From contig OZ024743.1 of NCBI GenBank assembly GCA_964016885.1, positions 241,490,001 through 241,554,000 of the forward strand: a DNA stretch of 64,000 nucleotides, given 5' to 3'. This document shows, in pieces, positions 4,021 through 51,526 of the stretch. The translations under genes were made by a program, and so were the position numbers. The stretch's first letter is position 1. Each line of letters starts with the position of its first letter. This DNA is from Eledone cirrhosa (lineage: Eukaryota). The notes beneath the pieces were generated by a model. That model saw nothing but the letters and a program-made list of their open reading frames with translations. It was not told the DNA's origin and did no database searches.

Positions 4021-4624
4021 GGTGGCGGCCCCATCAGCATTTCTATCCCCACAACCACCTCTACAATCTGTAAAACCCACCAACCTGGTACGTATCATTT
4101 CCCATCTCAACCAACACAGACGTACCCACACAGCATTTCCCTTCCATCCTGAATGTAACCCACCCTTGACACATGCATCACTAACTTCCATTATCCCCAT
4201 CACCACTAACACCACAACCATCAAGACCATCATCATCAACGTCATCACCACAACCACCACCAACGCCATCACCACAATGACGGCGAACACTACCACCGCT
4301 AACATCATCATAATCACCACTACTTACGCCGCAACAACACCATCATCACCAACACCACCGTCACAACTCCTATACCATCAACAACCGTATCACCACAACC
4401 CATACCTCAATGAAAACCTCCAACACCACCAACACCACTAATACGACTATTATAATCAACATCACAATTACCACCACCACATCACAACCACAACCTACAC
4501 TAACATTATCATCACAACCATAACCACCATTTCCACGATCACCTCCATCAACATTATGACCACTGCTACCACTAAGATGACCATCATAATCATGATCGCC
4601 AACACAAACATCATCATCACCATA

Positions 4625-7600: not shown

Positions 7601-8130
7601 CTACCATCACATCCACCACCAACACCACTAACCTACCACCACTACCATCGCCATTATCGCTACCACTACCATCACATCCACCACCAACACCACTAACCTA
7701 CCACCACTACCATCACCATCAACACTACCACTACCATCACATCCACCACCAACACCACTAACCTACCACCACTACCATCGCCATTATCACTACCACTACC
7801 ATCACATCCACCACCAACACCACTAACCTACCACCACTACCATCACCATCAACACTACCACTACCATCACATCCACCACCAACACCACTAACCTACCACC
7901 ACTACCATCACCATCATCACTACCACTACCATCACATCCACCACCAACACCACTAACCTACCACCACTACCATCGCCATCATCTGTACCACTACCATCAC
8001 ATCCACCACCAACACCACTAACCTACCACCACTACCATCACCATCAACAGTACCACTACCATCACATCCACCACCAACACCACTAACCTACCACCACTAC
8101 CATCACCATCATCACTACCACTACCATCAT
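4625..8130 (+). repeat. 65-bp tandem satellite, about 54 copies
   Basis: Unit acctaccaccactaccatc(g/a)ccatcatca(g/c)taccactaccatcacatccaccaccaacaccacta. The anchor recurs at 4641, 4706, 4771 ... 5031 (period 65). A variant acctgagacc appears at 6786, 6981, 7371, 7501 and 7566. Confidence 0.97.
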
Positions 8131-8159
8131 CATTATACCCACCACCACCAGTAGCATCA

Positions 8160-9560
8160 TCATCACAGCCAACCCGTCCATAAACATCATCACCAACACC
8201 ACAACCACCGCCACCACCATCACCACAACTATCACCAAAACTACCACCACAACCACCGCCACCCCTACCTTAACCATCCAGAACATCAACCGCCAGCACC
8301 ATCACCATAACTACCACCACCACTACAACCATAACCACCGCCACCACCAACACCACAACTATCACCACCATTACAACCACAACCACCGCCAGCACCATCA
8401 CCACAACTATCACCACCACTACCACCACAACCACCGCCAGCACCATCACCACAACTAACACCATCACTACCACCACAACCACCGCCACCACCATCACCAC
8501 AACTAACACCACCACTACCACCACAACCACCGCCACCACCAGCACGACAACTATCACCACCACTACCACCACAACCACCGCCACCACCTTCTGAAGAACT
8601 ACCACCACCACTAGCACCATCACCACAACTAACACCATCACTACCACCACAACCACCGCCACCACCATCACCACAACTATCACCACCACTACCACCACAA
8701 CCACCACCAGAACCATCACCACAACTACCACCACCACTACCACCACAACCACCGCCAGCACCAGCACCACAACTATCACCACCACTACCACCACAACCAC
8801 CGCCACCACCTTCTCCACAACTACCACCACCACTAGCACCATCACCACAACTATCACCACCACTACCACCACAACCACCGCCAGCACCATCACCACAACT
8901 AACACCATCACTACCACCACAAACACCGCCACCACCATCACCACAACTAACACCACCACTACCACCACAACCACCGCCACCACCAGCACGACAACTATCA
9001 CCACCACTACCACCACAACCACCGCCACCACCTTCTGAAGAACTACCACCACCACTAGCACCATCACCACAACTAACACCATCACTACCACCACAACCAC
9101 CGCCACCACCATAACCACAACTATCACCACCACTACCACCACAACCACCACCAGAACCATCACCCCAACTACCACCACCACTACCACCACAACCAGCGCC
9201 ACCACCATCACCACAACTATCACCACCACTACCACCACAACCACCGCCACCACCATCACCACAACAATCACCACCACTACCAACACAACCACCGCCACCA
9301 CCATCACCACAACAATCACCACCACTACCACCACAGCAAAAGCCAGCACCATCACCACAACTATCACCACCACTACTACCACAACCAGCGCCACCACCAT
9401 CACCACACCTATCACCACCACTACCACCACAACAACCACCAGCACCATCACCACGACTACCACCACCACTACCACCACAACCACCGCCACCACCATCACC
9501 ACAACAATCACCACCACTACCACCACAACCACCGCCACCCCTACCTTAACCATCCAACGC
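8160..9560 (+). repeat. (ACC)n-derived minisatellite with internal duplications
   Basis: Units of about 45 bp (accaccatcaccacaactatcaccaccactaccaccacaaccaccgcc). The marker ccttctgaagaact occurs near 8587 and 9031. cccctaccttaaccatcca occurs near both ends. Confidence 0.9.
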
Positions 9561-9651
9561 AACTAAATTCGCCTTGATCTGGAATGTTCTCTCTATTTCA
9601 GTATTCCGCTTAAAACTAAAAAATCATCATTGAAGACTACTTTGTAGTCTA

Positions 9652-12600
9652 ACCACCATCACCACCCCCACCAACAATACCACCTACACCACCACCAGCA
9701 ACAATACCACCTACACCACCCCCACCAACAATACCACCTACACCACCACCACCAACAATACCACCTACACCACCACCAACAACAACAATACCACCTACAC
9801 CACCACCAACAACAACAATACCACCTACACCACCAGCACCACCAACAGTACCACCTACACCACCACCAACAACAACAATACCACCTACACCACCACCACC
9901 ACCAACAATACCACCTACACCACCACCACCACAAACAATACCACCTACACCACCACCACCAACAACAATACCACCTACACCACCACCACCAACAATACCA
10001 CCTACATCACCACCACCAACAATACCACCTACACCACCACCACCAACAACAATACCACCTACACCTCCACCACCAACAATACCACCTACATCACCACCAC
10101 CACCAACAATACCACCTACACCACCACCACCAACAATACCACCTACAGCACCACCACCAACAACAATACAACCTACACCACCACCACCACCAACAATACC
10201 ACCTACACCACCACCACCAACAACAATACCACCTACACCACCACCACCAACAATACCACCTACACCACCACCACCAACAATACCACCTACACCACCACCA
10301 CCAACAACAATACCACCTACACCACCACCACCACCAACAATACCACCTACACCACCACCACCACCAACAATACCACCTACACCACCACCACCAACAACAA
10401 TACCACCTACACCACCACCACCAACAATACCACCTACACCACCACCACCAACAACAATACCACCTACACCACCACCACCAACAACAATACCACCTACACC
10501 ACCACCACCAACAACAATACCACATACACAACCACCACCACCAACAATACCACCTACACCACCACCACCAACAACAATACCACCTACACCGCCACCACCA
10601 ACAATACCACCTACACCACCACCACCAACAACAATACCACCTACACCTCCACCAACAACAATACCACCTACACAACCACCACCACCAACAATACCACCTA
10701 CACCACCACCACCAACAACAATATCACCTACACCGCCACCACCAACAATACCACCTACACCACCACCACCAACAACAATACCACCTACATCACAACCACC
10801 AACAACAATACCACCTACACCACCACCACCAACAATACCACCTACACCACCACCACCAACAACAATACCACCTACACCACCACCACCAACAACAATACCA
10901 CCTACACCGCCACCACCAACAATACCACCTACACCACCACCACCAACAACAATACCACCTACACCACCACCACCAACAATACCACCTACACCACCACCAC
11001 CAACAACAATACCACCTACACCTCCACCAACAACAATACCACCTACACCACCACCACCAACAACAATACCACCTACACCACCACCAACAACAACAATACC
11101 ACCTACACCACCACCACCAACAATATCACCTACACCACCACCACCAACAACAATACCACCTACACCACCACCACCAACAACAATACCACCTACACCGCCA
11201 CCACCAACAATACCACCTACACCACCACCACCAACAACAATACCACCTACACCACCACCACCAACAATACCACCTACACCACCACCACCAACAACAATAC
11301 CACCTACACCTCCACCAACAACAATACCACCTACACCACCACCACCAACAACAATATCACCTACACCTCCACCAACAACAATACCACCTACACCACCACC
11401 ACCAACAACAATACGACCTACACCACCACCAACAATAACAATACCACCTACACCACCACCACCAACAATATCACATACACCACCACCACCACCAACAATA
11501 CCACCTACACCACCACCACCAACAACAATACCACCTACACCGCCACCACCAACAATACCACCTACACCACCACCACCAACAACAATACCACCTACACCAC
11601 CACCACCAACAATACCACCTACACCACCACCACCAACAACAATACCACCTACACCTCCACCAACAACAATACCACCTACACCACCACCACCAACAACAAT
11701 ACCACCTACACCACCACCAACAACAACAATACCACCTACACCACCACCACCAACAATATCACCTACACCACCACCACCACCAACAATACCACCTACACCA
11801 CCACCACCAACAACAATACCACCTACACCACCACCACCAACAACAATACCACCTACACCACCACCACCAACAATACCACCTACACCACCACCACCAACAA
11901 CAATACCACCTACACCAACACCACCAACAATACCACCTACACCACCACCACCAACAATACCACCTACACCACCACCACCAACAATACCACCTACACCACC
12001 ACCACCAACAACAATAACACCTACACCACCACCACCAACAACAATACCACCTACACCACCACCACCACCAACAATACCACCTACACCACCACCACCAACA
12101 ACAATACCACCTACACCTCCACCAACAACAATACCACCTACACCACCCCCACCAACAATACCACCTACACCACCACCACCAACAACAATACCACCTACAC
12201 CTCCACCAACAACAATACCACCTACACCACCACCACCAACAATACCACCTACACCACCACCAACAACAACAATACCACCTACACCACCACCATCAACAAC
12301 AATACCACCTACACCACCACCAACAACAACAATACCACCTACACCACCACCACCACCAACAATACCACCTACATCACCTCCACCAACAACAATACCACCT
12401 ACACCACCACCACCAACAACAATACCACCTACACCACCACCACCAACAATACCACCTACACCACCACCACCAACAACAATACCACCTACACCACCACCAC
12501 CAACAACAATACCACCTACACCACCACCAACAACAACAATACCACCTACACCACCACCACCAACAATAACACCTACACCACCACCACCACCAACAATACC

Positions 12601-15600
12601 ACCTACACCACCACCACCAACAACAATACCACCTACACCACCACCACCAACAACAATACCACCTACACCACCACCACCAACAACAATACCACCTACACCA
12701 CCACCACCAATACCACCTACACCACCACCACCAACAACAATACCACCTACACCACCACCACCAACAATACCACCTACACCACCACCACCAACAACAATAC
12801 CACCTACACCACCACCACCAATACCACCTACATCACCACCACCACCAACAATACCACCTACATCACCCCCACCAACAATACCACCTACACCACCACCACC
12901 AACAACAATACCACCTACACCACCACCACCAACAACAATACCACCTACATCACCCCCACCAACAATACCACCTACACCACCACCAACAATACCACCTACA
13001 CCACCACCACCAACAACAATACCACCTACACCACCACCACCAACAACAATACCACCTACACCACCACCACCAACAATACCACCTACACCACCACCACCAA
13101 CAACAATACCACCTACACCACCACCACCAACAATACCACCTACACCACCACCAACAACAACAATACCACCTACACCACCACCACCAACAATACCACCTAC
13201 ACCACCACCACCACCAACAACAATACCACCTACACGACCACCACCACCACCAACAATACCCCCTACACCACCACCACCACCAACAATACCACCTACACCA
13301 CCACCACCACCAACAATACCACCTACACCACCACCACCAACAATACCACCTACACCACCACCACCAACAACAATACCACCTACACCTCCACCACCAACAA
13401 TACCACCTACATCACCACCACCACCACCAATACCACCTACACCTCCACCAACAACAATACCACCTACACCACCACCACCAACAATACCACCTACACCACC
13501 ACCACCAACAACAATACCACCTACACCACCACCACCAACAACAATACCACCTACACCACCACCAACAACAACAATACCACCTACACCTCCACCAACAACA
13601 ATACCACCTACATCACCACCACCAACAATACCACCTACACCACCACCACCAACAACAATACCACCTACACCTCCACCAACAACAATACCACCTACACCAC
13701 CACCACCAACAACAATACCACCTACACCACCACCACCAACAACAATACCACCTACACCACCACCACCAACAACAATACCACCTACACCACCACCAACAAC
13801 AACAATACCACCTACATCACCACCACCAACAACAATACCACCTACACCACCACCAACAACAATACCACCTACACCACCACCACCAACAATACCACCTACA
13901 CCACCACCACCAACAACAATACCACCTACACCACCACCACCAACAATACCACCTACACCACCACCACCAACAACAATACCACCTACACCTCCACCACCAA
14001 CAATACCACCTACATCACCACCACCACCACCAATACCACCTACACCTCCACCAACAACAATACCACCTACACCACCACCACCAACAATACCACCTACACC
14101 ACCACCACCAACAACAATACCACCTACACCACCACCACCAACAACAATACCACCTACACCACCACCAACAACAACAATACCACCTACACCTCCACCAACA
14201 ACAATACCACCTACATCACCACCACCAACAATACCACCTACACCACCACCACCAACAACAATACCACCTACACCTCCACCAACAACAATACCACCTACAC
14301 CACCACCACCAACAACAATACCACCTACACCACCACCACCAACAACAATACCACCTACACCACCACCACCAACAACAATACCACCTACACCACCACCAAC
14401 AACAACAATACCACCTACATCACCACCACCAACAACAATACCACCTACACCACCACCAACAACAATACCACCTACACCACCACCACCAACAATACCACCT
14501 ACACCACCACCACCAACAACAATACCACCTACACCACCACCACCAACAATACCACCTACACCACCACCAACAACAACAATACCACCTACACCACCACCAC
14601 CAACAACAATACCACCTACACCAACACCACCAACAATACCACCTACACCACCAACAACAACAATACCACCTACATCACCACCACCAACAACAATACCACC
14701 TACACCACCACCACCAACAACAATACCACCTACACCAACACCACCAACAATACCACCTACACCACCAACAACAACAATACCACCTACATCACCACCACCA
14801 ACAACAATACCACCTACACCACCACCACCAACAACAATACCACCTACACCACCACCACCACCAACAATACCACCTACACCACCAACAACAACAATACCAC
14901 CTACATCACCACCAACAACAACAATACCACCTACATCACCACCACCAACAACAATACCACCTACACCACCACCACCAACAACAATACCACCTACACCACC
15001 AACAACAACAATACCACCTACATCACCACCACCAACAACAATACCACCTACACCACCACCACCAACAACAATACCACCTACACCACCACCACCACCAACA
15101 ATACCACCTACACCACCACCACCACCACCAATACCACCTACACCTCCACCAACAACAATACCACCTACACCACCACCACCAACAATACCACCTACACCTC
15201 CACCAACAACAATACCACCTACACCTCCACCAACAACAATACCACCTACACCACCACCAACAACAATACCACCTACATCACCACCACCAACAACAATACC
15301 ACCTACACCACCACCACCAACAACAATACCACCTACACCACCACCACCACCAACAATACCACCTACACCACCACCACCACCACCAATACCACCTACACCT
15401 CCACCAACAACAATACCACCTACACCACCACCACCAACAATACCACCTACACCACCACCACCAACAACAATACCACCTACACCACCACCACCAACAACAA
15501 TACCACCTACACCACCACCACCAACAATACCACCTCCACCACCACCAACAACAATACCACCTACACCACCACCACCAACAACAATACCACCTACATCACC

Positions 15601-15640
15601 ACCAACAACAATACCACCTACACCACCACCACCAACAACA
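9652..15640 (+). repeat. Variable-length (21-33 bp) tandem array caataccacctaca(cca)n(aca)n, about 6 kb
   Basis: Nearly invariant core ataccacctac with triplet-slippage spacers. Gives the spurious 2039-aa Gly/Val ORF on the - strand. Confidence 0.97.
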
Positions 15641-16169
15641 ACTCTGACAGCAGCACCAATAATACCTCTATCAGTACCACCCCGACCACTACAAACAACA
15701 ACAATAACACTAATAACAACAACTACCACCATCACCACTACCACCAACACCACCATCACGAACACCACCCACGATCAGCACTACTATCAGCACCAAATCC
15801 AACACCATCATCAACATCACCATCGCCACCATCAACAATACCACCATCAACGTGCAAGTTACCAACTCAACCACCAACACTACTACCATCAAAACCACGA
15901 GTCTAAACAACGCTAATACCATCACCGCAAGTCCCCACCAACGTCCCCACCATCACCGCAAGTCCCCACCAACGTCCCCACCATCACCGCAAGTCCCCAC
16001 CAACGCCCCACCATCACCGCATGTCCCCACCACTACCACAGACTATCCACCCATCAACATCCAGCCTTCTAATATTTTCCGCCTCATTGAGTCAATATCA
16101 AAACCGAGTCAAATCAACCGGAACATATATGAACTTGTCTATCAATGTTACATAAAAGCTTACCCTCTA

Positions 16170-16730: not shown

Positions 16731-17200
16731 TGGCTGCCAACTCGTTTTCGAGTACGGCCACTACTTTATATCCATGTAGGAGAACCCTACCGATGCGCTA
16801 ACGTGTGTGACATTTTAGTCCAGCCAGCGACTTGAAAACTCTGGTACAAACACTACACCTGTGACAATTATTTACACATAGTGCTAGGCCCATGGTACCA
16901 TGTGACGACAAGTGCAGAGAGATCTCCAGATATAAAGCAATGCCTGTGCCGTGAAGCTTTTATAGTGAGCAAAGGCACTGCACAAAGCCAGTCCCACTCT
17001 CTTAACCAAGATGATATTTACCAAAAAGAAGAACAAGTCAACATCATTGGATACCATCAGGGTTGCAGGTGTTATATCAGAGTTTTCCTTCTCCTAGAAT
17101 TCTGCCTTGACAAAGGCTAAGGGGTCATCTCTCCCGGTGATTTTGGATGGCCATTGACTCTTAAGAGCTCCTTTGCCCTTTGACATACATACATACATAT
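16728..17200 (-). mobile_element. Internally deleted (bipartite) RTE-derived non-autonomous element
   Basis: The minus-strand 3' part encodes the C2H2-like finger CSVCTRVFKSLAGLKCHTR and ends ...gtactcgaaaacgagttggcagcca. The 5' part has ctaggagaaggaaaactctga, a motif I associate from memory with RTE 5' regions. Confidence 0.6.
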
Positions 17201-18119
17201 GCCCTTTGACATACATACATACATACATACATACATACATACATACATACATACATACATACATACACGCACACATATGCATAGACACACACATATAGAC
17301 ACAGTTACATATATACACACCATATTCCCTTACACAAATATACTCATATATATACACACCTATACACACAATATTTCCTCCCACGCACACTGGCTTATAC
17401 AAATACATACGCACACTATTCCTTGCCATACACACACATACTAAAGGCACAATATTGTTAGAGTGACACACATTTACATATATGTACACACACATATAAA
17501 CACTCACATACTTGTATAGAAACACACTCATAATTACACACACAAACACACACACACATACACCACTAATACAGACACAATATTCCCACACTGACACATT
17601 TATTTATATATACATACACATATAAACACACACATATACACACACAACTACGACAGACACAATATTCACACTGGCACATACTTACATATATGTACATGCA
17701 CAAATACACACACACATTTACACATACATACACACACACACAAGAACCTGTCCCTTTGTGTACTCATTTATTTCCAAATTCTGCTTCGAAGAATCGAGAC
17801 GTATCTGAGGATCTTGCGATTTCAGAGTCAGACTCGATCATTACATCGATCGTGTCTCGCGCTGGTCGCTAGAGGAACGATTGTAATATGTCTCATAAAT
17901 TTTAATTCGTCGCACCAATGATTCTCCGTTTCTTATGTGATATTATACTCTGCTCTGTAAGAGCATCGAGTGCTCAAACGGCCTACCTCATACGGACGCT
18001 TTAAGCATCCCAAACCAATTATATATATATATATATATAAAAGGATCGATCGACTTTCGTTAAATCGAACCGAGGCAACAATGTTTCAGTCGGTCTTTCC
18101 AGTTGCTAGTACTATCTAT

Positions 18120-18260
18120 CGGTCGCAGCTCCAGGTAGAAGGAGCAACGTGAAATAAAGTGTATTGCTCAAGGACATAACGCATCGCCCGGTCCAAGAAT
18201 CGAACTCACAACCTCAAGATTGTGAATCCAATTCTCTAACCACTCAGCCACACGCCTTCA
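18120..18260 (-). mobile_element. SINE family 2 fragment
   Basis: Reverse complement reads ggcgtgtggctgagtggttag...GAGTTCGATTC...atgtccttgagcaatacactttatttc. Confidence 0.75.
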
Positions 18261-18565
18261 CATATATATATACAGTTGAAAATTGCAAACTTGACTGTCA
18301 CTACTGAATATGAAGCTGAAGATTGCGAAAACATGAAAGTACTTGTTCAATTAACACTCAACACAATATTGTGTCTGTATTAGTGGTGTATGTGTGTGTA
18401 ATTATGAGTGTGTTTCTATACAAGTATGTGAGTGTTTATATGTGTGTGTACATATATGTAAATGTGTGTCACTCTAACAATATTCTACCATACTATTTCA
18501 TTATACTATCATTATAATTTTAAAGGATTGTAAATAAAACGAGTAAATCAGACAAAGTTGGAATT

Positions 18566-18639
<74 letters not shown>

Positions 18640-18649
18640 GGGGAGAAAA

Positions 18650-18835
18650 AAAATGAAATTTCATTTCTGACTCTTAGTACGGATGATACTTAAATATAAG
18701 TATGTATACGTACATACATATATGTATACAGACGTACAGTAGTATGTATATACATACATACATGCACAGATATATAAACGTATGGGTTTACTGAACATTT
18801 ATTATAATGCTCGGTTTGTTTGTAAATAAACAGCG
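18650..18835 (-). mobile_element. Fragment of the ~446-bp hammerhead element, spanning its end-to-start junction
   Basis: The reverse complement matches 22530-22692 and continues directly into 22243-22290. Confidence 0.7.
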
Positions 18836-18918
18836 GTACATCTATCTAGATTATATTTTAACCTGTAATCAATATTTCATTTCTGCATATACATATATAT
18901 ATAAATATGTGTGTATAT

Positions 18919-18982
<64 letters not shown>

Positions 18983-19052
18983 CGTAAAATAAGAAAATCT
19001 TTTTAAAAAAATTTTTTTTTTTTTTCATTTTTACTTACTTACTTAAATTTTC

Positions 19053-19134
19053 ACTCCAACTAATTAGTTTCTGCAATGGGATAATGACAGTTACGTAATC
19101 TAACTGTCGAGAATTCATTGCGTCATCAGGGAGT
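19053..19134 (-). ncRNA. Type I hammerhead ribozyme fold (copy 1)
   Basis: Reverse complement: actcc-CTGATGA-c-gcaatg...cattgc-a-GAAA-c-taatta-GTT-ggagt. It has a 5-bp stem I and a palindromic stem III. Confidence 0.75.
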
Positions 19135-19619
19135 CTATTCTCAGCTAAGTCTCCAGGCAATGCGTGGACACTGGCGGCTCATATAAAAATAATAATAATT
19201 CGGTAGATGGAACAGCTAGCGAGGACTGAATTTCCATGCACTGAAATCCTCACTGCCTCTAGTCAAATGGCCGATTCTAAAGAATCAATCACGTGACACA
19301 GAGGCTAGTCAGAAGGAATGGGATGGTAAGATGACAGACGCCTACTAACACCCCCCCCCCCCCATTTTTTTTTTTAGAAGTGGTTTTGGCAGGTTTGCTC
19401 GACAAATCAGTGATTTGGAGATAAATATAGATAATTTAATATATCAACTAACATAAGCGCACAGATGCACGCCTATGCCAGCAAATACACAGGTTATGTC
19501 ATAGTACCTAGGTGGTTCAATGCAGGAGGATGCAGAACAATAATATAAAAGACGTAAATAAGAAAATCTTTTTAAAAAAAAATTTTTTTTTTAATTTTTA
19601 CTTACTTACTTAAATTTTC

Positions 19620-19693
19620 ACTCCAACTAATTAGTTTCTGCAATGGGATAAAGACAGTTCCGTAATCTAACTGTCGAGAATTCATCAGGGAGT
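19620..19693 (-). ncRNA. Hammerhead ribozyme copy 2, stem II disrupted
   Basis: Same as copy 1 except for an 8-nt deletion that removes the 5' arm of stem II. Confidence 0.55.
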
Positions 19694-19997
19694 CTATTCT
19701 CAGCTAAGTCTCCAGGCAATGCGCGGACACTGGCGGCTCATATAAAAATAATAATAATTCGGTAGATGGAACAGCTAGCGAGGACTGAATTCCATGCACT
19801 GAAATCCTCACTGCCTCTAGTCAAATGGCCGATTCTAAAGAATCAATCACGTGACACAGAGGCCATTTGACTAGAGGCAGTGAGGATTTCAGTGCATGGA
19901 ATTCAGTCCTCGCTAGCTGTTCCATCTACCGAATTATTATTATTTTTATATGAGCCGCCAGTGTCCGCGCATTGCCTAGAGACTTAGCTGAGAATAG

Positions 19998-20079
19998 ACT
20001 CCCTGATGACGCAATGAATTCTCGACAGTTAGATTACGTAACTGTCTTTATCCCATTGCAGAAACTAATTAGTTGGAGT
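19998..20079 (+). ncRNA. Type I hammerhead ribozyme fold (inverted copy)
   Basis: ACTCC 19998, CTGATGA 20003, stem II GCAATG/CATTGC with inner hairpin GACAGTT/AACTGTC, GAAA 20061, C-TAATTA-G-T-T, GGAGT 20075. There is a C.A mismatch at the base of stem II. Confidence 0.75.
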
Positions 20080-21079
20080 GAAAATTTAAGTAAGTGAGTA
20101 AAAATTAAAAAAAAAAATTTTTTTTAAAAAGATTTTCTTATTTTACGTCTTTTATATTATTGTTCTGCATCCTCCTGCATTGAACCACCTAGGTACTATG
20201 ACATAACCTGTGTATTTGCTGGCATAGGCGTGCATCTGTGCGCTTATGTTAGTTGATATATTAAATTATCTCTATATATATATATATGTATATACAGAAA
20301 TGAAATATTGATTACAGGTTAAAATATAATCTAGAAAGTGAGAAACAAAACGAGGATGTAGATTATGGAACACCAAAATGATTTAGAAATCGACCTCAAG
20401 TAGGAGCAATAACATTAATAAAGACATGAACAAAACTACACCATTTTGTTTTGAAAATGTTGAAAGTAGGTTTAAAAGTATGAATTTTCATAAGATTTTC
20501 GTAGTTGTCTCAGTGGACTAGCCGTAGGTTCTAGAGACGGTCGAGATTCTTGCCTTGGGTACAATCCTGGTCAAGAGGTGCATGTAATCTTTTTCGGTTT
20601 GTATTTATGTCCCAATAACTTTTTTTTCAGTTATTGCTCGCACCAACCAGAGGTATAGCCAGTCACTCTCTCTCTCAGCTGGCCTCTTCCTCATCCTTTC
20701 ACTCAGTCACTCTCTGGTTCTCCCCCTCTCTCACTTCCTCCCGTTTGACCTGTGTGAAATCCTTTTCTCGCTCACATCTCGCCCAGGTCGGATGGCTTTA
20801 CCTCTCGTCTATGATTTCACCGAGCTTAAGTTCATAGATATCACGGGCTTGTCTCTTCTCTTCCCCTCTTTCCGTTACATTACCATCAATGTTTGTTTAC
20901 ATATCTTGCTCTCTTCACCCTATTGTACGTGTCCCAATAACTTTCTTTAGTTATTGCTCGTACCAACCAGAGGTGTATGATCTTTAAAGCGAAGAAATAC
21001 CAATGAAGGTTGGAAGATCACTGATGAAGGACTAAGCTTATTGATATGTAACCCATGTGCAACCACGCAGCACGTCATT

Positions 21080-21146
<67 letters not shown>

Positions 21147-21266
21147 GGGAAGTAAGGATTCTATACAAAACAGTGGATATAGAGAAAAGGTGAAATTGGA
21201 AATAGCACGGAAAATATATTTACGGATCTGTTTTTCTTTTTTGATTCGTCAAAGTGACATTATTGA

Positions 21267-21449
21267 GGTAGTATCGGTAGAGGGTCGGACGCCATGCTTT
21301 GAAGCATAGAGTTACCTCCCTTTATGATCTGAGTTCAAATCCCGCCGAGGTTAACTTTGCCTTGCATCCTTACGGGGTCGATAAAATAAAGTACCAGTAA
21401 TGCACTGGGATAATTGGTGGCCTTGTGCCAAAAGTAGAAACAATTATTG
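21267..21449 (+). mobile_element. SINE family 1 copy
   Basis: Colinear with 705-890. B-box GAGTTCAAATCCC. Confidence 0.85.
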
Positions 21450-21891
21450 ATAAGATAACATTATTGAAAAAATGAGAGGGACAATCTTTTGAAAAAAGTT
21501 TTATAATGTATATAAAGTATATAAAGTATTTCCGGTTTCGATGTATTATTAAAATTCATCTTATCAAATGTTGAGTATTGAAATAAAAATTAAAAAGAAT
21601 TAATAGGAGTTAAAAACTAAAAATTAAGGATTTAAAATTAAAATCAAATGTTTGGAGTAAGTTTTCTTCCATCCTTCTTGATCAAAATTTGGTGGTAAGA
21701 GAAGGTAGCAGTAACTGTGATTCTTCACAGAAGAAAGTTGTTTTTTGAGAATATCTTGTGTGTTAATTGAGTAGTCAATAGTTGAAAAGAGGATGGGGGA
21801 TTGTAAGTTAGAGGTAAGTTCTGTAGAAGCAGCAGGAGTGTAGGAGAAATTTTATTATTGGAATGTGGTTTTAGAGAGTGTGTGTATATAT

Positions 21892-22066
21892 GTAAGGATG
21901 AAAGGCAAAGTTAACTTCGGCGGGATTTGAACTCAAATTTATAGTCTGAGTTCAAATCCCGCCGAGGTTAACTTTGCCTTTCATCCTTACGGGGTCGATA
22001 AAGTAAAGTACCAGTAATACAATTGGATAATTGCTGGCATTGTGCCAAAAGTAGAAACAATTATTG
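21892..22066 (+). mobile_element. SINE family 1 copy, 5'-truncated with a fold-back inversion and a long TSD
   Basis: 21892-21936 is the reverse complement of 21948-21990. The flanking direct repeat attattggaatgtggttttag(a/g)gagtgtgtgtatatat occurs at about 21854 and 22060. Confidence 0.85.
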
Positions 22067-22197
22067 GAATGTGGTTTTAGGGAGTGTGTGTATATATATG
22101 TATAGGAAAATGTTCAAGAACCCGACTGCAAGGCTCAAGCCATTTCGACGGCTATTTCTGGACTTAATTAGATTTATATATATATATATATATATAT

Positions 22198-22687
22198 ATA
22201 AATGGAATAGAATGAAACGAAATTTCATTTCTCACTCTTACATTTAAGTAAGTGCCGAACTAAGAGTGAGAAATGAAATTTCGTTTCATTCTATTCCATT
22301 TATCGTTTTCGGTGCGCCTGGCCGACTGAACTCACTCGATATGCAAATTAGGCTGCTCAGCCGTTAATTTTCATAAGGAAAGTATATACTTTCGAACGTT
22401 CAACCATCTGGCAGAAAGGTATACGGTGCTGACGATAGCTAACAAGCTTGAAACAAGTACATCGTTCCTGTGTCAGTGTTGAACAAAAACGTGACGTTGT
22501 TGCCTGAACACTGTACGGCGTAAATCAGGCTGTCGGTTTGTTTACAAACGAACAAAGCGAACATTATAATAAATGTTCGGTAAACTGATACGTGTATATA
22601 TATATGCGTGCCTGTATATATATATATATATATATATATACATGCTACTGTACGTCTGTATATATATATGTGTGTACGTATACATAC

Positions 22688-22692
<5 letters not shown>
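22198..22692 (+). mobile_element. Unit-length ~446-bp hammerhead element with a 43-bp 5' inverted repeat, embedded in (TA)n
   Basis: Inverted arms at 22198-22240 and 22261-22303. Terminal redundancy tacattta at 22239 and 22685. Hammerhead fold at 22424. Confidence 0.7.
22424..22464 (+). ncRNA. Minimal type I hammerhead ribozyme fold
   Basis: CGGTG-CTGACGA-T-AGCT-aaca-AGCT-T-GAAA-C-aa-GTA-CATCG: 5-bp stem I (one G-U pair), 4-bp stem II, rudimentary stem III and a GUA cleavage triplet. Confidence 0.8.
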
Positions 22693-22757
<65 letters not shown>

Positions 22758-22854
22758 ATAGTAATAATAATAAATTTGAAGACTAAAATCCAAAGAGGGC
22801 TCGATAAGGATAAATATATATCAAATATATAAGAACCGTAGAGGAAATATTTAT

Positions 22855-25094
22855 TAAAATAACAGTTTAAAGTTTAAGCAAAGAATCGCTGCTTTCGCCC
22901 TTAACGGGATCTTCTGAAACTAACAAAGTCAATCTGTAAACGCAGAAGTGGATATTTCAAAAAACGTTGCAACCGGAGGAAGACAGGAAGATGATACTTT
23001 GGTTCGTGGAAACGTTCGCTGGCAAAGAACGGGAAAAAACGAATATAATACGTCATTAATAGGAGCGGAGAAAAACAATTACGCGCAAAGACAGAACCAC
23101 GTTAATGGTATAAAAGAGGTCGTAGACTAGTGTTCTCTTAGGTGGTTCATAGAGACGTTTTCTCGCAATGAACGAAAAAAACGAAGATAATACGTCATAT
23201 GTGGAGCGTGGAGAACAATTGCACGCAAAGACAAAACCACGTAAATGGTATAGCAGAAGTTGTAGACTAAAATTCCAACTAGGAGACCGAATGAATCTCC
23301 GCGTCAGCGTTAAGAACAAAGTAAATAAATACAATACAGAAGTAATAGAAATTAAATAAATACATACACGCATACAAATACGTACATACACAAGCATACG
23401 CGAAAACACTTACCATAGGTATACAAAACCACGCACATATAAATATCTGTGTGTGTGTGTATGCGTGTATACAAATAAATAAATAATTAAATAAACGTAT
23501 ATAAATAAATAAATACGTATATAACAAGCGCACGCACATACATACATGTAAATACACAAATGTTACACAAATGTTCGGAGACGTAAGTCAACCAAAACAT
23601 GAAGTACACATATACACACATCCTACATACGTACGAACCTGCATACTCACACAGACGCAAAACTCCCGTATACACATAACCAAACCATATGTACCAGAAT
23701 ATATAAAATTATACGCCATAACATATACAATCAAATATACGTACGAGAAAGTATACGTACTTTCACAAAACATACAGGTAATATATACTTACCTATGCAA
23801 ATAAGTAATGGTATAAACAAAACATATACTTAGCTACCACATCAAGACGTAAAATATCCACGTATAGATCGTACTATCCGTTAGGGTATAGCGTGGGGCT
23901 GTAATACAGGAAAGGTTTGTGCAATTTATGTTTACAAGCCGAAATTGCCTCAGATTTTTTGTTTAAGATGTGGTCTGTGGCGTAGAGTATTTCCAGGGCC
24001 TCAGCGGCGCAGAGGTCACATGGTCTTTTATTTCCGTTATACGATCTAGCTCTAGCTAGGATCTCCCAGTGTAACTTATATTGGGTGTGGTTGTCTTTTA
24101 GACTCCAGATATAAGCTGAAAATGACGTCATATTACTTCTTAGAGGTTAACGAAAAGAATGGGTATGCATATAAAGACGCTGCTTGAATATATTGGCAGT
24201 TAACCCTATGTAGGCCCTACGGGACGTGGGTGTTTCAACCTTACATGTGTAGACAATGTTACTAGAGAGGCATTTCCCGGATAGGGGGCAATCAACCCGA
24301 TTCCTACAATTACAGTTAGTACTAACTACAGGGTTGCACGTGTTCCTACGGCTAGGTAGTTTAGCTAAATTTGAAGCTGTGATGTTATGTGCAAGGTTAG
24401 GAGTCGTAGGGTAAGAAATTCTAATAGTATTTCTATTAAAAATGTTACTATATTTATGTGTAGGGGGAAAATGCTTCGTAATAAGGGAAAGAAAGATCTT
24501 AGCTACTGGTGTGGCCACCTCCATATTATATGGTGGGTTATACCAACAAATTCGACGGGATCTATTTCTTCTAGGTCTATTTTCATACTCTATATATGCT
24601 ACCTTATCGACAAATCCACTCCGAGCAAGAGCTTCGTTGTAATAAGTGGAATGGTCGTTGAAAATATGCTCGTTAGTAGATAGACGGGAAAGCCTCAACG
24701 AAACGTTTCTTACCAGGTTCTTGGTTATGCTGGCAGGATGGTTGGAATGCTTACTTATGTAATTAAGCGTATCATTCGGCTTTCTATACGGGTAATACAA
24801 CCCATTCAATAAATTGAGGGTAACGTGGAAGTAATTAACGACCGAGAGATTGGCCTCAACCTGTATAGAGAGGTTGAAGCCTTTAAAGAAGGCTGTGAGT
24901 TCTTTTCTGAACGTGTCGCAAGCACAAGGTCCGCACTTAGTCATGGTCAAAAGACCATCATCACGGTACAAACCACCGCCCGCGTTTTTTGAAATATCCG
25001 CTTCTGCGTTTACAGATTGACTTTGTTAGTTTCAGAACATCCCGTTAAGGGTGAAAGCAGTGATTCTTTGCTTAAACTTTAATCTGTTATTTTA

Positions 25095-25095
<1 letters not shown>
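22855..25095 (-). mobile_element. 5'-truncated Penelope-like element (Naiad-like) with an inverted copy of its 3' tail
   Basis: The RT-GIY-YIG ORF lies inside. Segment 24983-25095 is the reverse complement of about 22855-22967. (TA)n on both flanks. Confidence 0.85.
23874..24982 (-). pseudogene. PLE polyprotein C-terminal part: RT C-terminus plus GIY-YIG endonuclease
   Basis: GLYRDDGL (RT catalytic motif), SNHPASI, WYNPPY, CNCRNRVDCPLSGKC, NIVYTC..AYIGLT..FKQR and CDLCAAE. The two track ORFs are in the same frame, separated by one TAA at 24147. Confidence 0.9.
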
Positions 25096-25186
<91 letters not shown>

Positions 25187-25463
25187 TAGGGGTGTATATA
25201 TAACAATACACACATGTGTTTGTGGTGGGGGGGGGGGGGTTCAACCTGTCTGTCACAGATCACTTTGTGGTGGGAAATTAATAAAATTTGTTTCTTCAAA
25301 ATTCAGAAAATTGTCCAAAATTAAAAACTAAAGTCCAACGGATTCTTTGATTCCCAAAATTTTAAAGTTAAACATTTTTTTTTTTTAATTCTTTAAAATA
25401 AGCCAAATTAGAGTATCAGTAGCAGTAACTTCTGCAATGAGTAATTTTTTCTCTAATTTTGTG

Positions 25464-25507
<44 letters not shown>

Positions 25508-25639
25508 TGGAAGGTAATACCCGTAGTGGTAAAGCACTCAGTCCAAGGGACGAGTTAGGTGGAAGTGGTTACACAACAGTTAGTTCATTATACTATACAG
25601 GGAAGTTTAATGGGGGCAGCGGCCTGCTCGCCACTCCAA

Positions 25640-26556
25640 GTAGCAAACTAAAAATCAACCCTAGAATAGGAATGAGAAATGGGATGACAAATAACAAATC
25701 CCCAGGTAATAATAGTCCTAGGAAGGCCCCTACCAACTCCACTAGAACCCCTAGAAGGAATAGACCTAGAAATATCACCTGGCTTAACCCCCCTATTCTC
25801 ATCTAATCTAGCCACTAATATCCCTAAACGCTTCTCCTCTATCCTATCTAAACATTTCCCCCAACCATAGATATTATAAACTCTTTAATAAAAATAACAA
25901 TGAAATCTCATTCTCCACAACACCTAACCTAGCTAGCCACATCGCATTCAGTAACCATCATAAACTAAGACAGTATAACTCCCACACCGCGGCAAAACCA
26001 CCCCTATCAAATACACCACGCCACTACACCAATAATTACTCTTGTAGCACACCTCCCCCATCTAATCCTTCTAGCACTGACCAACCGCTTAGGTTAAACT
26101 ACCCTACTCTGACTAACCGCAGAAGGAACTGCAACTGCCGTTACACTAATGCATGCCCATTAAATAGACACTGCCTGACACCCAACATAGTCTATAGATG
26201 CACGGTTAAAACTGCTCCGAATACCAGCTCTTATATCGGGTCTACCTCTAACCCTTTTAAGGTACGATATAACGCGCACTCTTTTTCCTTCCGAGACTCT
26301 AGCAACAGATGTTCGACATCTCTAGCTAGGCTCATTAAAAACCTTAAGCAACATTGAACACTTACTAAAATGGGATATCGTAGCTAGGGCCCAACCGTTC
26401 AATGGACGAAGAAATTCTTGTGATCTCTGTATTACCGAAGCATATTACATAACTCTATCACGACCTCTACCGATTAACGATAGAACGGAGGTAACTATTA
26501 GCTGTCAACATCGAAGGGCTAATTCCTTCGCCAATAGAATATTAGACCCAACATAG
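25640..26556 (+). pseudogene. Second PLE (Naiad-like) GIY-YIG region, frameshifted
   Basis: RRNRPRNITWLNPP, CNCRYTNACPLNRHC, NIVYRC..SYIGST..FKVRY and KWDIVARAQPFNG..CDLCITEA. Homologous to 23874-24982. Confidence 0.85.
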
Positions 26557-26932
26557 TCATCTAGCCCCATTTTTACTTGTAGCTAATAAGTTAAATAGCT
26601 ATAACTAACTTAGATAATTATAAGTTACCTCCCCTACATTGTCTTTCAATTAAAAAAATTAAAAATTTGCACTTAACTATAAACTACCCACAATTTCTAA
26701 ACTCGAGGAGTTACTTCTCCTGAAACCACCCTCTAATTAGTAAGGTAAATATGACCTTTGGCGGCCATCTTGTTACCCATAGGCAGATCTCACACAATGC
26801 AGCCTCGACAGATGAATACTACTTGATTATGGCTGACAATTGATACAACCAGGACGCCATAGTGAAATACCAATATATGGAACATTACATTATGTAACAT
26901 TCTCTCTTTATTTTAATTTATATTCCTTTGCA

Positions 26933-27051
26933 GTTCCGATGAGCCGCTCTGTTTGTAAATATGTTAATTATTTTCAACTGAACCAGATCAATAATGATAT
27001 ATAGTCATCTGATCCAGAAATATTATATGGAGTAGCGAAACAATTGTAAAC
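26933..27051 (+). ncRNA. Hammerhead ribozyme fold in the 3' pLTR region of the PLE (core variant CCGATGA)
   Basis: GTT-CCGATGA-GCCGCTC...GAGTAGC-GAAA-CAATTG-TA-AAC: palindromic stem III, GUA site and a long stem II insertion. Confidence 0.65.
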
Positions 27052-27084
27052 GGACATTATTATTATTATTATAGTTTTGTGTAT

Positions 27085-27450
27085 CTTTGTTCCAGTGAGA
27101 ATGTGTTTTAGTGATTTAGATTGCATTTTGCTTTTGATGATCTTGTGTTTCTAGAATTTTCTTCATTTTTCATCTTTAAATAGAATGGGCAGGATTTTGT
27201 GTAGGAGGTCGAACATTTCGGTGTTTCTGGGGTTGAACGTGGATACATATGGTAAGGTATTGTTTGTGGATATGTACTTTTGGTTGTTGGGTTGATGAAT
27301 TTGGTTGTAGATTTGTTGTTCGTGAATCCCATGACTAAGTTGGCGTATGTAGGGGCTACCTTTGTTCCCATTGCAGTTCCTGAAATTTGTTGGTATGTTG
27401 AGTCATTGAAAGTAAAGAAATTATTCTGTAAGATAAATCGGAGTCCATCC
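27085..27450 (-). pseudogene. Third PLE fragment (RT domain, internally deleted)
   Basis: [37 protein letters not shown] is the typical PLE RT motif B region. Confidence 0.85.
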
Positions 27451-27455
27451 TATGC

Positions 27456-27487
<32 letters not shown>

Positions 27488-27511
27488 TTATACATATATA
27501 TGTCCATCACA

Positions 27512-27560
<49 letters not shown>

Positions 27561-27566
27561 ATCACA

Positions 27567-27604
<38 letters not shown>

Positions 27605-27721
27605 TGTGAGATTCAAAAATAACTGATATAGGGAAAAATGGTGTTAAATGTGGATATGACTAGCTTCTAATTTTCATTATAACAAACGTTGTCAGACACA
27701 CATACATACATATATATATAC

Positions 27722-27787
27722 ATAATTGTCTCTACTTTAGGCACAAGGCCAGCAATTACCCAGTGCATTACTGGTACTTTATTTTAT
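27722..27787 (-). mobile_element. SINE family 1 3' fragment
   Basis: Reverse complement of the tail at 830-893. Confidence 0.8.
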
Positions 27788-27813
27788 ATAAATATATATA
27801 TATATATATACAA

Positions 27814-27847
<34 letters not shown>

Positions 27848-27988
27848 ATTACATTGATTGGCTTTGGCCGGTATTAGCCCAGGCCATGTCTAACTTAATA
27901 GCAACATCCACATGCACGCGCCCGCGCATTCACACACACACACACGCACATGCACGCGCCCGCGCACTCACACACATATATATATATA

Positions 27989-28054
<66 letters not shown>

Positions 28055-28095
28055 TTATATATATGTGTAAATATGCACACGTACACACACACACG

Positions 28096-28160
<65 letters not shown>

Positions 28161-28191
28161 TTATAAATATGTGTAAATATGCACACGTACG

Positions 28192-28248
<57 letters not shown>

Positions 28249-28642
28249 TTATATATATATGTGTAAATATGCACACGTACACACACACACATACACACAC
28301 ATATACATATATATATATATATATGTATATATATACATAGATACATATATATACATATACATAGCTATCTGCTTAAGGCGCATCTTATTACGTATACTTC
28401 TATCTCCATCAAATATACAGTAAAAAGGTAAAATACTAAAATACTAGTAACTAAAAGCGTTAAGTGTGTGTGTCTGTCCCTGTGTCAGTGTGCATCTGTA
28501 TGTATGCTTATGGATGTATGTGTTTGTGTGAATTAGGATCTAAGTACAGTTACTGTTTGATTGTAGGCCTACAAATAATTCTGGTGTAACTAATTTCTCG
28601 CTTTTTGATGGAAATCTTACTAATGACACATCCTAGATTTTA

Positions 28643-28643
28643 C

Positions 28644-28701
<58 letters not shown>

Positions 28702-28797
28702 ATAGTAGTAGTAGTAGTAGTAATAGCGCAACAGGAGTAGTAGTAGCAGCAGCAGTGGTATTATTATTATTATTATTATTATTATTGTTATTGTTAT
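28643..28797 (+). repeat. (AGT)n followed by (ATT)n: left border of the retrotransposon cluster
   Basis: Seen directly in the sequence. Confidence 0.95.
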
Positions 28798-30282
28798 TCC
28801 TTGAATCTCAGTCATTGATGTTGGTTAACTGGAAAGTCCGTTGGATTGAATATCAAGCCACTACCTGCAGCCTCAGATATTCAGGACGTATCGGAGGGTT
28901 CTTGCTGTTCCAAGCAAGCATGCCTTTTGAAGCGTTCCAAAAAGCGTGAAGGGGCCGATTTTCTTTAACCATCCCTGGAAACCTTTGGAGATAGTCCCCA
29001 GTGCGCCTATGACAATCGGGATCACTTTGACTTCATGGCAGTTCCAAATCCTTTTCACCTCCCACTTTAGGTCCTGGTATCGGTTAATTTTCTCCCTCTC
29101 CTTCTCTTGCACTCTCGTGTCGAACGGGCAGGCCACATCCACAATCAGGCACGATCTTTTTTCTTTGTCCATAACCACCAGGTCAGGTCTATTGTGTTCC
29201 AGTTTTTTGTCCGTCTGTATCCTAAAATCCCACAGCACCTTCACCTGACTGTTCTCCATCACCGCCTCTGGCCTATGCTCATACCATTTCTCAGAATGTG
29301 GTAGATTGTTTAGTTTGCACAGGTGCCAGTGGATCACCCTGCCCATCACATCGTGTCTCCAGCCCTTATAGTGGATCTGGGCTAGGTGTTTACACTCGGA
29401 CACAATGTGAGCCACAGTCTCCTCTCTCTCTCCACAGATCCTGCACAGTGGGCTAGCCTCCTCCTTGTAGATATGGTGCTTCAACCACTTCGTTTTGAGG
29501 GCCTGCTCCTGCGCAGCCATTAGCATTCCCTCTGTAGCCTTTTTGAGGTCTCCTCTTCTCAACCAGTTCCATGTCTGTGGATCTCTAAATTCAGTTTTCT
29601 CAAAGAAGGTACTATGAAGGGATTTTCCCTTAAGGCTGCTCTTCCTCCTTGATGTTATTTCCTCCTTGGACATCCCCTGGCCTACTGTCCCCTCCTTCAG
29701 TACAGTTCTGAGCATTGGCTCCTTACTATAGGTCACGTATTTGTATAGGTTGTTTTTCTTCATCTGAACACAGTCCTCTATGCTGATAAGACCTCTTCCA
29801 CCCTCAGATCTCCTTAGGTAGAGTCTATCGACATCACTCCTCTTGTGGAACATGTTGTAGATAGTCAATAGCTTCCTAGTCTTCCTATCCATTTCCTTTT
29901 GTTCAGCAACATTCCATCTCAGAATTCCCGCACTGTACCTAATAATAGACACAGCTCGGGAATTTACTGCGCTTATGGCATTTCTGCTGTTCAGATGTGA
30001 CTTCAATACGCTCCTTACTCTCCGAATGTATTCAGTTCTTAACAATTCCTTCATTTTTTTGTTCTTTATGCCATCAGCCTCCAGAACGCCCAAATACTTG
30101 TATCCTTCCTCAGAGTCAATTTCCTTTATCATCTCACCTGTTGGTATCTGGATCCCGTTACTTCTGCTCAACCTACCCCTCTTCATCACAATGACTCCAC
30201 ATTTACCAATACCAAACTGCATACATATATCACTGCTGAAAATACGGACAGTGTCAACAAGCTCATCCAACTCCTTCTCACT
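28798..30282 (-). mobile_element. 5'-truncated R4/Dong-like RLE non-LTR retrotransposon
   Basis: Contains the ORF below and a ~75-nt 3'UTR that runs into (TAA)n. The 5' junction is also in (TAA)n. Confidence 0.9.
28873..30270 (-). CDS. RT C-terminus + CCHC finger + restriction-like endonuclease (partial ORF of an R4/Dong-like element)
   Basis: YKYLG, RLYLRRSEGGRGL, CRICGEREETVAHIVSEC, RPDLV..IVDVACP..EKINRY (PD-D/ExK) and PIVIGALG. Uninterrupted but 5'-truncated. Confidence 0.92.
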   Translation of the reverse strand: MDELVDTVRIFSSDICMQFGIGKCGVIVMKRGRLSRSNGIQIPTGEMIKEIDSEEGYKYLGVLEADGIKNKKMKELLRTEYIRRVRSVLKSHLNSRNAISAVNSRAVSIIRYSAGILRWNVAEQKEMDRKTRKLLTIYNMFHKRSDVDRLYLRRSEGGRGLISIEDCVQMKKNNLYKYVTYSKEPMLRTVLKEGTVGQGMSKEEITSRRKSSLKGKSLHSTFFEKTEFRDPQTWNWLRRGDLKKATEGMLMAAQEQALKTKWLKHHIYKEEASPLCRICGEREETVAHIVSECKHLAQIHYKGWRHDVMGRVIHWHLCKLNNLPHSEKWYEHRPEAVMENSQVKVLWDFRIQTDKKLEHNRPDLVVMDKEKRSCLIVDVACPFDTRVQEKEREKINRYQDLKWEVKRIWNCHEVKVIPIVIGALGTISKGFQGWLKKIGPFTLFGTLQKACLLGTARTLRYVLNI

Positions 30283-43099: not shown

Positions 43100-43212
43100 T
43101 AGATAATAACAACAACAACAATAGTAACACCAAGAACTGTATCGATAACAGCAGCAGCAGCTGTAATAGCAGCAACAACCACAACAATGAAAGCAAAGTC
43201 AACAGCAGCAAT

Positions 43213-43243
<31 letters not shown>

Positions 43244-43419
43244 GCAACAACAGCAACAATGAAAGCAAAGTCAACAGCAGCTATAACAACAACAACAACA
43301 ACAACAACAACAGCAACAACAACAGCAATGAAAGCAATGTCAACAGCAGCAATAACAACAACAACAACAACAACAACAGCAACAACAACAGCAATGAAAG
43401 CAATGTCAACAGCAGCAAT

Positions 43420-43462
<43 letters not shown>

Positions 43463-48319: not shown

Positions 48320-48353
<34 letters not shown>

Positions 48354-51300: not shown

Positions 51301-51492
51301 AACAACACCAACCACAACAGTAACAACAACAACAATGAAAGCAATGTCAACAGCAGCAATAACAACAACAACACCAACCACAACAGTAACAACAACAATG
51401 AAAGCAATGTCAACAGCAGCAATAACAACAACAACACCAACCACAACTTTAACAACAACAATGAAAGCAATGTCAACAGCAGCAATAACAAC

Positions 51493-51526
<34 letters not shown>

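Follow-up and report, generated by a model that had tools for sequence, protein, structure and literature searches.

The 64-kb stretch of the Eledone cirrhosa genome analysed here (C4:241490001-241554000, referred to below as the window; the genome comprises 3.0 Gb and is rich in microsatellites) carries two copies of one hammerhead-bearing repeat family with a unit of 420 to 470 nt, namely, an inverted two-arm insertion at 22198-22692 and a copy belonging to subfamily B at 18648-18834. Our analysis of this family across the genome points to a high-copy, non-coding type of non-long terminal repeat (non-LTR) retrozyme that was probably copied into (TA)n runs by the reverse transcriptase (RT)-endonuclease of a Penelope-like element (PLE), and probably in part from circular RNA. 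Two lines of evidence carry this reading: the 3' ends of the insertions fall at two adjacent fixed points, as in PLE insertions, and a few copies bear clusters of A>G changes that look like RNA edits. The repeat class is known, and the interest lies in the mechanism; what is new are the tail signature and the A>G evidence on this retrozyme family.

A high-copy tandem family with a type I hammerhead

An earlier note on this stretch, made from its letters, had described a unit at 22239-22692 with a hammerhead and no coding frame, and both observations hold. The type I core at 22429-22459 (+) is the sole match to our descriptor in 17001-30000 (200 2-mer shuffles averaged 0.005) and comprises stem I (ACGGUG/CAUCGU), CUGACGA, a stem II with a basal U.U, GAAA, the loop and the cleavage triplet GUA. 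For the majority sequence of the family, the longest frames opened by ATG consist of 49 to 53 microsatellite codons. The exact 32-nt core has 2,690 matches genome-wide, and a wider core pattern has 38,524, with 0 for the reversed control. Among 68 monomers, the period ranges from 406 to 535 nt with a mode of 422, typical tandem periods being 420 to 470 nt, and the GC content is 38%. The arrays run head to tail with seamless unit-to-unit junctions, the longest run being 37 consecutive cores, and the circular fold of the unit is predicted to be 71% paired. A z score of -9 for this circular fold was discarded as evidence, as it is inflated by the internal microsatellite hairpin. No LTR-type layout was seen in the mapped arrays, in which a primer binding site and a polypurine tract were not searched for. 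As judged from sequence, the family is a non-LTR retrozyme by the definition of that class, its cleavage and its circles being predicted.

Covariation within the hammerhead helices was assessed with 12 haplotypes hand-chosen from four subfamilies (8 from 223 cores, 3 subfamily B loci and the window copy). Six of the 15 helix pairs have changed on both sides, and 95% of the cells are paired; none of 500 shuffles matched the score, and slid alignments dropped to 34 to 52% paired. Since kin sequences can outscore shuffles, the evidence lies in stems I and II, where pairs have changed on both sides, rather than in the count. Minimum-energy folds of the hammerhead region alone were no better than those of shuffles (z of -0.6 to -0.9). 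In 48 of 50 copies, loop III reads CUAG, a palindrome, and the CAAG of the window is a single-copy change. The ACUAGU self-duplex has a predicted energy of -4.8 kcal/mol, compared with +0.9 for the window variant, so that the predicted intermolecular helix is lost in this copy; with a single hammerhead and a broken loop III palindrome, its release as a monomer by double cleavage is therefore impossible.

Insertion ends carry the signature of PLEs

The ends of the insertions were surveyed at 82 loci taken in chromosome order and chosen by an intact core, with 3 more loci inside long arrays excluded. These loci hold 95 arrays with 148 arms, 68 of which end at a point termed end A, 60 at a point termed end B, 17 elsewhere and 3 at the edge of the locus. 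Thus, 128 of 145 arms stop at two fixed 3' points that lie about 60 nt apart. Two arms are present in 47 of the 95 arrays, in every case with the tails pointing outward: 32 combine A with B, 2 combine B with B, none combines A with A, and 13 have an untyped or edge end. Where both ends could be typed, the combination is therefore A+B in 32 of 34 arrays (two of the 32 being duplicates at locus L095). The sequence (TA)4 follows 66 of the 68 A ends and 48 of the 60 B ends, compared with 631 of 8000 random flank points. The 5' ends, on the other hand, are scattered across the unit, and only 3 of 145 lie within 5 nt of the cleavage site. Because the RT evidently passes the cleavage site, the template would have been a circle, an uncleaved multimer or a monomer that was re-read by jumping.

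In the published description (PMC8557442), a PLE insertion is a partial tandem accompanied by an inverted copy truncated at its 5' end; one end bears a tail of 30 to 40 bp, and (TA)n is a frequent target. In vitro, the length of the PLE tail equals the spacing of two RT start sites (PMC11167929). The Eledone family presents the corresponding features, with two adjacent fixed 3' ends, 5' truncation with inversion and microsatellite targets, and from this likeness we infer that it inserts by the same mechanism as PLEs, using two adjacent RT start sites. Mobilisation by PLEs, which the earlier note had proposed, is thus supported by the tail pattern of the ends, with the partner supported as a class.

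Other parts of that proposal need to be recast. The expectation of tandem arrays or a spread of circular permutations was borne out for the arrays and failed for the spread, as the 3' ends are fixed at two sites and it is the 5' ends that vary. Fixed ends, or constant attachment to a PLE open reading frame (ORF), had been named as signs of an ordinary PLE pseudo-LTR; the 3' ends are indeed fixed, and a PLE ORF adjoins the unit in none of 42 single-arm arrays (upstream side). As fixed 3' ends are themselves the PLE signature, they leave the retrozyme idea standing, contrary to what had been anticipated. Nor do the two copies in the window represent two circular permutations. The relative on the minus strand at 18650-18835 does run from the end of the unit into its start, as reported (77% and 84% identity), and is a 5'-truncated subfamily B copy spanning 18648-18834; 26 of 29 such copies end at one common 3' point, and the other 3 continue into the next unit. 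The word tacattta, thought to bound the unit, occurs once in each unit of the tandem arrays, and at the end of the window arm, which stops about 8 nt short of the usual end, it is built partly from the target (TA)n.

The array with 37 cores, which belongs to subfamily D (L230/L231, C1:5738094-5752747), ends at B and A and includes a short inverted arm; 28 of its units that were compared differ by a mean of 2.3 bases, and variants recur among them.

A>G clusters and array homogeneity

At locus L255 (C2:78934747-78937199, at 78.93 Mb), an array of six units differs from its sister haplotype by nine A>G changes on the hammerhead strand and by almost nothing else. The last unit is partial and covers eight of the nine A>G sites, and A>G marks are found in both terminal partial units; a base-by-base comparison of three units revealed one further private change, in one of them. 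Allowing up to 1 mismatch, the haplotype is matched 6 times genome-wide, each time within the L255 array itself. Since both terminal partial units are edited, an outcome not expected from DNA-level expansion alone, the most likely course is that one molecule went through several rounds of reading. The array thus suggests repeated copying of a single RNA, likely a circle, into the genome. Possible alternatives are an edited source copy that was lost or is missing from the assembly, gene conversion, and template jumping on a linear monomer.

Shared changes are also found in other arrays. At L261, 12 of 13 rare changes are A>G, with two sites common to its three tail copies; at L342, 5 A>G changes are common to both arms; at L321, three rare changes are present in all 7 full units; and at L100, six full units are base-for-base identical over both arms. 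Genome-wide, the A>T change at 69 in L100 is matched 13 times, 8 times in L100 itself and 5 times on different backgrounds; the A>G change at 252 was rejected as a private mark of this array, with 96 matches genome-wide. In 20 further loci, neighbouring pieces share A>G changes in 8 of 15 cases and other changes in 8 of 69. Of 114 rare alleles, 10 are common to both arms, compared with 15 of 7,128 between loci.

The palindromic loop allows a mirror test, in which a sense A>G change yields CTGG and a sense T>C change yields CCAG. The counts were 132 and 86, respectively, and a second A>G within the pattern was found in 16 of the 100 CTGG matches listed (11 loci), compared with none of the 86 CCAG matches. 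The 5' neighbours of 42 hand-picked A>G sites were U in 23 cases, A in 12, C in 5 and G in 2 (P = 0.01 against all A residues of the unit), and ADAR sites are described as being depleted of G at this position (PMC5625713). The A>G clusters are therefore likely to be ADAR-like edits made on RNA and frozen by reverse transcription. Where edits are specific to single units, as in other arrays discussed below, multimers are likely to have served as templates too.

Proposed mechanism

Taken together, the data fit a cycle in which arrays would be transcribed and adjacent hammerheads, joined through the ACUAGU palindrome, would cleave after GUH, the monomers so released then being ligated to form circles. 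At a TA run, a PLE protein would nick the two strands, and cDNA would be primed at two positions within the RNA, end B and end A, the latter lying about 60 nt further downstream, giving two tail-out arms, one of which has the extra tail. The RT would continue past the cleavage junction for one turn or many and stop at random. In some instances, ADAR would edit the structured RNA before it is copied, and the edits would be frozen in every unit made from that molecule. Uncleaved linear multimers would probably also act as templates, and the long old arrays would in addition have been reshaped at the DNA level.

We regard the chances as even that the genome goes further and records rolling-circle retrotransposition, with single ADAR-edited retrozyme circles being read for many turns by the PLE enzyme from two fixed sites. 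It is of note that in L255 and L321 all units carry edits that break the dimer palindrome, and these may stabilise the circle against re-cleavage.

The search for a PLE partner

Next to the two-arm insertion lies a Hydra-type PLE with its own two-arm layout (inverted 22847-22966 and 24983-25102, with a tail of about 90 nt). It belongs to a large family (68,282 first-look candidates, of which 134 were scored at 92 to 94% identity) with open frames of up to 879 aa. No hammerhead is common to the loci of this PLE, although Hydra elements are said to carry one. Pfam assigned no family to the PLE fragments of the window, and Atlas returned HTH_animal/GIY-YIG look-alikes. With five fragments of PLE proteins from the window as probes, PLE protein matches were found upstream in 5 of the 42 single-arm loci, all about 600 nt or more from the junction, and the common non-unit DNA upstream of the 42 arrays is limited to pieces of 38 to 48 nt. 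In the sampled loci, the unit is non-autonomous, and the comparison with the neighbour yielded no partner for it.

Evidence against the proposed reading and rival explanations

Several observations weigh against PLE-driven copying of a retrozyme from edited and partly circular RNA. With regard to the hammerhead, Rfam, which the earlier note had recommended as a check, reports none, whether for the window at gathering score or for two stretches at E<=10, and its output is confined to microsatellite-hairpin miRNA look-alikes; moreover, 9 of the 12 haplotypes lack the basal pair of stem II. With regard to the partner, the unit has zero DNA similarity to 30 loci of the neighbouring Hydra-type PLE. 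Most of the remaining points concern the edits. Edited copies are rare, with 0 of 467 units being A>G rich in the background, and copies with an intact core show no A>G excess (in subfamily C, single-unit changes comprise 31 A>G and 31 T>C). The excess of 25 versus 4 at 23 CTGG loci falls to 9 versus 4 when L261 and L255 are left out, and the control set also leans toward A>G (13 versus 6). L255 itself was found through a pattern that already contained one A>G, following an L100 allele. In the 20 further loci, 7 of 15 A>G changes are not shared; neighbouring units are differently edited at L326, L278 and L274; rare alleles are shared across arms in just 3 of 18 arrays; and long arrays are heterogeneous, with repeated blocks.

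Some of these points bear on a rival that we consider rather unlikely and that keeps PLE-type insertion while holding that the template is always linear RNA, either uncleaved multimers or a monomer re-read by jumping, with circles as a by-product; homogeneous arrays would then stem from homogeneous source arrays, DNA-level expansion or gene conversion. The differing edits at the three loci just named agree with it, as do the trimer repeats at L161 and the block repeats in long arrays. It also draws on work with other elements: an Anolis PLE takes unprocessed RNA in vitro and hammerhead mutants leave insertion unaffected (PMC11167929), and Xenopus retrozyme dimers are cleaved in vitro in only one of nine cases (bioRxiv 10.64898/2026.07.22.740005). 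L255 is harder to accommodate, since edits are found in both of its terminal partial units and the assembly holds no source locus. Unequal crossing-over retains the two original end units, and the edited stretch must therefore have been copied twice or fully converted. Separately edited copies, in addition, use differing subsets of hot-spot sites, the hammerhead helices covary between subfamilies, and the junctions at the cleavage site are seamless in the 2,690 exact cores. It is on the tandem arrays, this covariation, the read-through of the cleavage site and the editing marks that the circular or multimeric template suggested by the earlier note finds its support.

That the unit is instead the pseudo-LTR of an unsampled autonomous PLE, the arrays being its truncated products, appears improbable. 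The tail, the inversions, the targeting of (TA)n and the palindromic-loop hammerhead are all traits of PLE pseudo-LTRs, and Xenopus retrozymes are related to such pseudo-LTRs (bioRxiv 10.64898/2026.07.22.740005), but full units that follow one another head to tail, for up to 37 cores running, leave no space for an ORF, and the PLE matches upstream of the single-arm arrays are few and never closer to the junction than about 600 nt. Random circular permutation of a circle, or the spread of a DNA satellite without RNA, could account for 5' ends over the whole unit and for the long tandem arrays, yet is contradicted by the two fixed 3' points and the A+B pairing, and by strand-specific A>G clusters that point to an RNA step, which makes it very improbable.

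Anatomy of the window copies and neighbouring repeats

The region 18000-28000 of the window consists of repeats stacked within TA runs (Table 1). In the two-arm insertion, the arms point outward and (TA)n lies beyond each. The left arm, which the earlier note overlooked together with the second hammerhead family described below, stops at end A (22198), followed by (TA)n at 22175-22197; the right arm starts at the inversion junction (22236) and stops at end B, followed by (TA)n at 22693-22754. The near-palindromic hairpin immediately 5' of end A, which is retained in a distant subfamily, would be a candidate RT-recognition element. The octamer ATGCAAAT, which we take to be an Oct-1 site of snRNA-type promoters, lies 80 to 100 nt upstream of 159 of the 223 hammerhead cores and of 44 of 47 in subfamily D. 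A young 422-nt lineage (L091, L100, L172 and L255) has lost the octamer through an A>T change and still makes long arrays, which weakens the case for a requirement. The subfamily B copy shares 90 to 95% identity with other members of this older subfamily (40 of 2,468 candidates scored), and these relatives have the remaining unit and the hammerhead upstream.

Table 1. Features of the hammerhead repeats and of the adjacent PLE in the window
Feature	Position	Strand	Basis or remark
Short inverted left arm ("tail")	22198-22240	-	100% inverted match to 22261-22303
Long right arm, nearly one subfamily A unit	22236-22692	+	90-97% identical to full-length copies at other sites; aligned with tandem copy L004
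Near-palindromic hairpin immediately 5' of end A	22270-22287	+	Kept in distant D subfamily (L088, L110)
Octamer ATGCAAAT	22341-22348	+	Candidate internal promoter element
Type I hammerhead with bulged, extended stem I	22417-22469	+	Core 22429-22459, predicted cut after 22459
Internal (TA/CA/TG) microsatellite-like hairpin, length-variable	22595-22688	+	Ends at end B
5'-truncated single-arm subfamily B copy	18648-18834	-	Ends at end A, without hammerhead
Second, unrelated hammerhead tandem family, two-armed inverted insertion	18977-20279	.	Period of about 567 nt
Hydra-type PLE: RT, CxCX5C linker, C-terminal GIY-YIG	22755-25102	-	Hydra pattern; very abundant

The second hammerhead family has a longer tail, and its copies are 96 to 99% identical (2,677 first-look candidates); its hammerheads at 19050-19137 (-) and 19995-20082 (+) have a long stem II and the palindromic loop CUAAUUAG. 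A 65-nt stretch is present as an inverted duplicate at 18842-18907 (-) and 20273-20338 (+), flanking the TA run of this family; target DNA may have been copied by fold-back here during insertion. Further hammerheads were seen at about 18316-18345 (+), where a degenerate member of a third family has the loop GUAC (intact relatives occur at L083); at 55106-55155 (+) and 54883-54932 (-), an inverted pair of the PLE pseudo-LTR kind with a long stem II and a palindromic UAUAUA loop; and at L165:1-900, a tandem array with a unit of about 281 nt and the palindromic loop CGCG. The fragments at 25441-26357 (+), 27108-27449 (-) and 28873-30282 (-) belong to two further PLE-like ORFs and to a non-LTR RT that carries zf-RVT, and 21321-21449 and 21938-22066 are 93% identical copies of a very common short repeat found in about 100 of the sampled loci. 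Two 11-kb minisatellite arrays rich in CAC/AAC (4609-15641 and 43168-54033) show a strong strand skew and are possibly long low-complexity coding repeats.

Implications

That PLEs supply the enzyme and retrozyme circles the template has been proposed, not demonstrated (PMC7229834); dependence on PLEs is proposed in PMC7761336 too, where the repeats are described as offering no motif that names the partner, and the mechanism of mobilisation is left open in the account given in bioRxiv 10.64898/2026.07.22.740005. The family described here provides genomic evidence that is unusually direct on how such elements move. Its two predicted RT start sites are pinned to within a few bases, and its editing barcodes can be counted genome-wide without RNA. 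If the proposed reading is true, private sets of edits would tell, for each insertion, a monomer circle from a linear multimer and would indicate whether one or two RNAs gave rise to both arms. The family also yields a direct substrate, in circular or linear dimer form, for the in vitro assay of PLEs that is already established.

Comparison with known systems

In the papers searched, we found neither the Eledone family nor a retrozyme with the tail signature nor arrays of edited retrozymes, and the supplements of retrozyme papers may list this family or relatives. The earlier note did not recognise the family as described; its kind is known (PMC7229834; bioRxiv 10.64898/2026.07.22.740005). The main text of a 2026 octopus repeat annotation (PMC13282606) makes no mention of hammerheads or retrozymes, and among the matches listed in one supplement of PMC8557442, the octopus PLEs are Naiads only.

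Like the metazoan non-LTR retrozymes described in PMC7229834, the Eledone family consists of short, low-GC, non-coding tandems with one type I hammerhead per unit and thousands of copies, its predicted circle is highly paired, and PLEs are present in the same genome. A helix III of a single pair with a palindromic tetraloop is shared with axolotl HHR_Amex1, and the U.U at the base of helix II is shared with HHR_Amex2 (PMC7229834). The Eledone unit of 420 to 470 nt differs from those of coral (220 to 245 nt), mussel (350 to 390 nt) and axolotl (330 and 350 nt) (PMC7229834), and its (TA)n flanks show no target-site duplication. The parts of PMC7229834 consulted, where expression and circles are demonstrated, make no mention of two features of insertion seen in the Eledone family, the pair of fixed 3' ends and the inverted arms, or of editing marks; the Eledone family is known from the genome. 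A further hammerhead repeat invites comparison with regard to the octamer. Newt satellite 2 is reportedly a hammerhead tandem repeat that needs dimers and has an snRNA-type internal promoter. The octamer hints at a similar, putative promoter in Eledone, for which no proximal element was identified.

With PLEs, those of the Hydra clade in particular, the family shares partial tandems, an inverted 5'-truncated arm, a tail at one end, (TA)n targets and a pair of adjacent RT start sites preceded by a hammerhead (PMC8557442, PMC11167929), whereas its unit lacks an ORF, its tail measures about 60 nt rather than 30 to 40 and its tandems are of whole units. Non-autonomous Chlamys elements, such as MRC1, are similarly PLE-dependent and form multicopy head-to-tail insertions, but their 3' ends resemble those of autonomous families and they are mostly without hammerheads (PMC8557442).

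A parallel in interpretation is the recent account of vertebrate non-LTR retrozymes as non-autonomous PLE derivatives (bioRxiv 10.64898/2026.07.22.740005), which concludes on the same class of partner. Unlike the vertebrate retrozymes, the Eledone unit had no homologous pseudo-LTR among the 30 loci of the one Hydra-type family compared. The two cases are built differently: the vertebrate one, as presented there, rests on co-occurrence and pseudo-LTR homology, and the Eledone one rests on insertion anatomy and editing marks.

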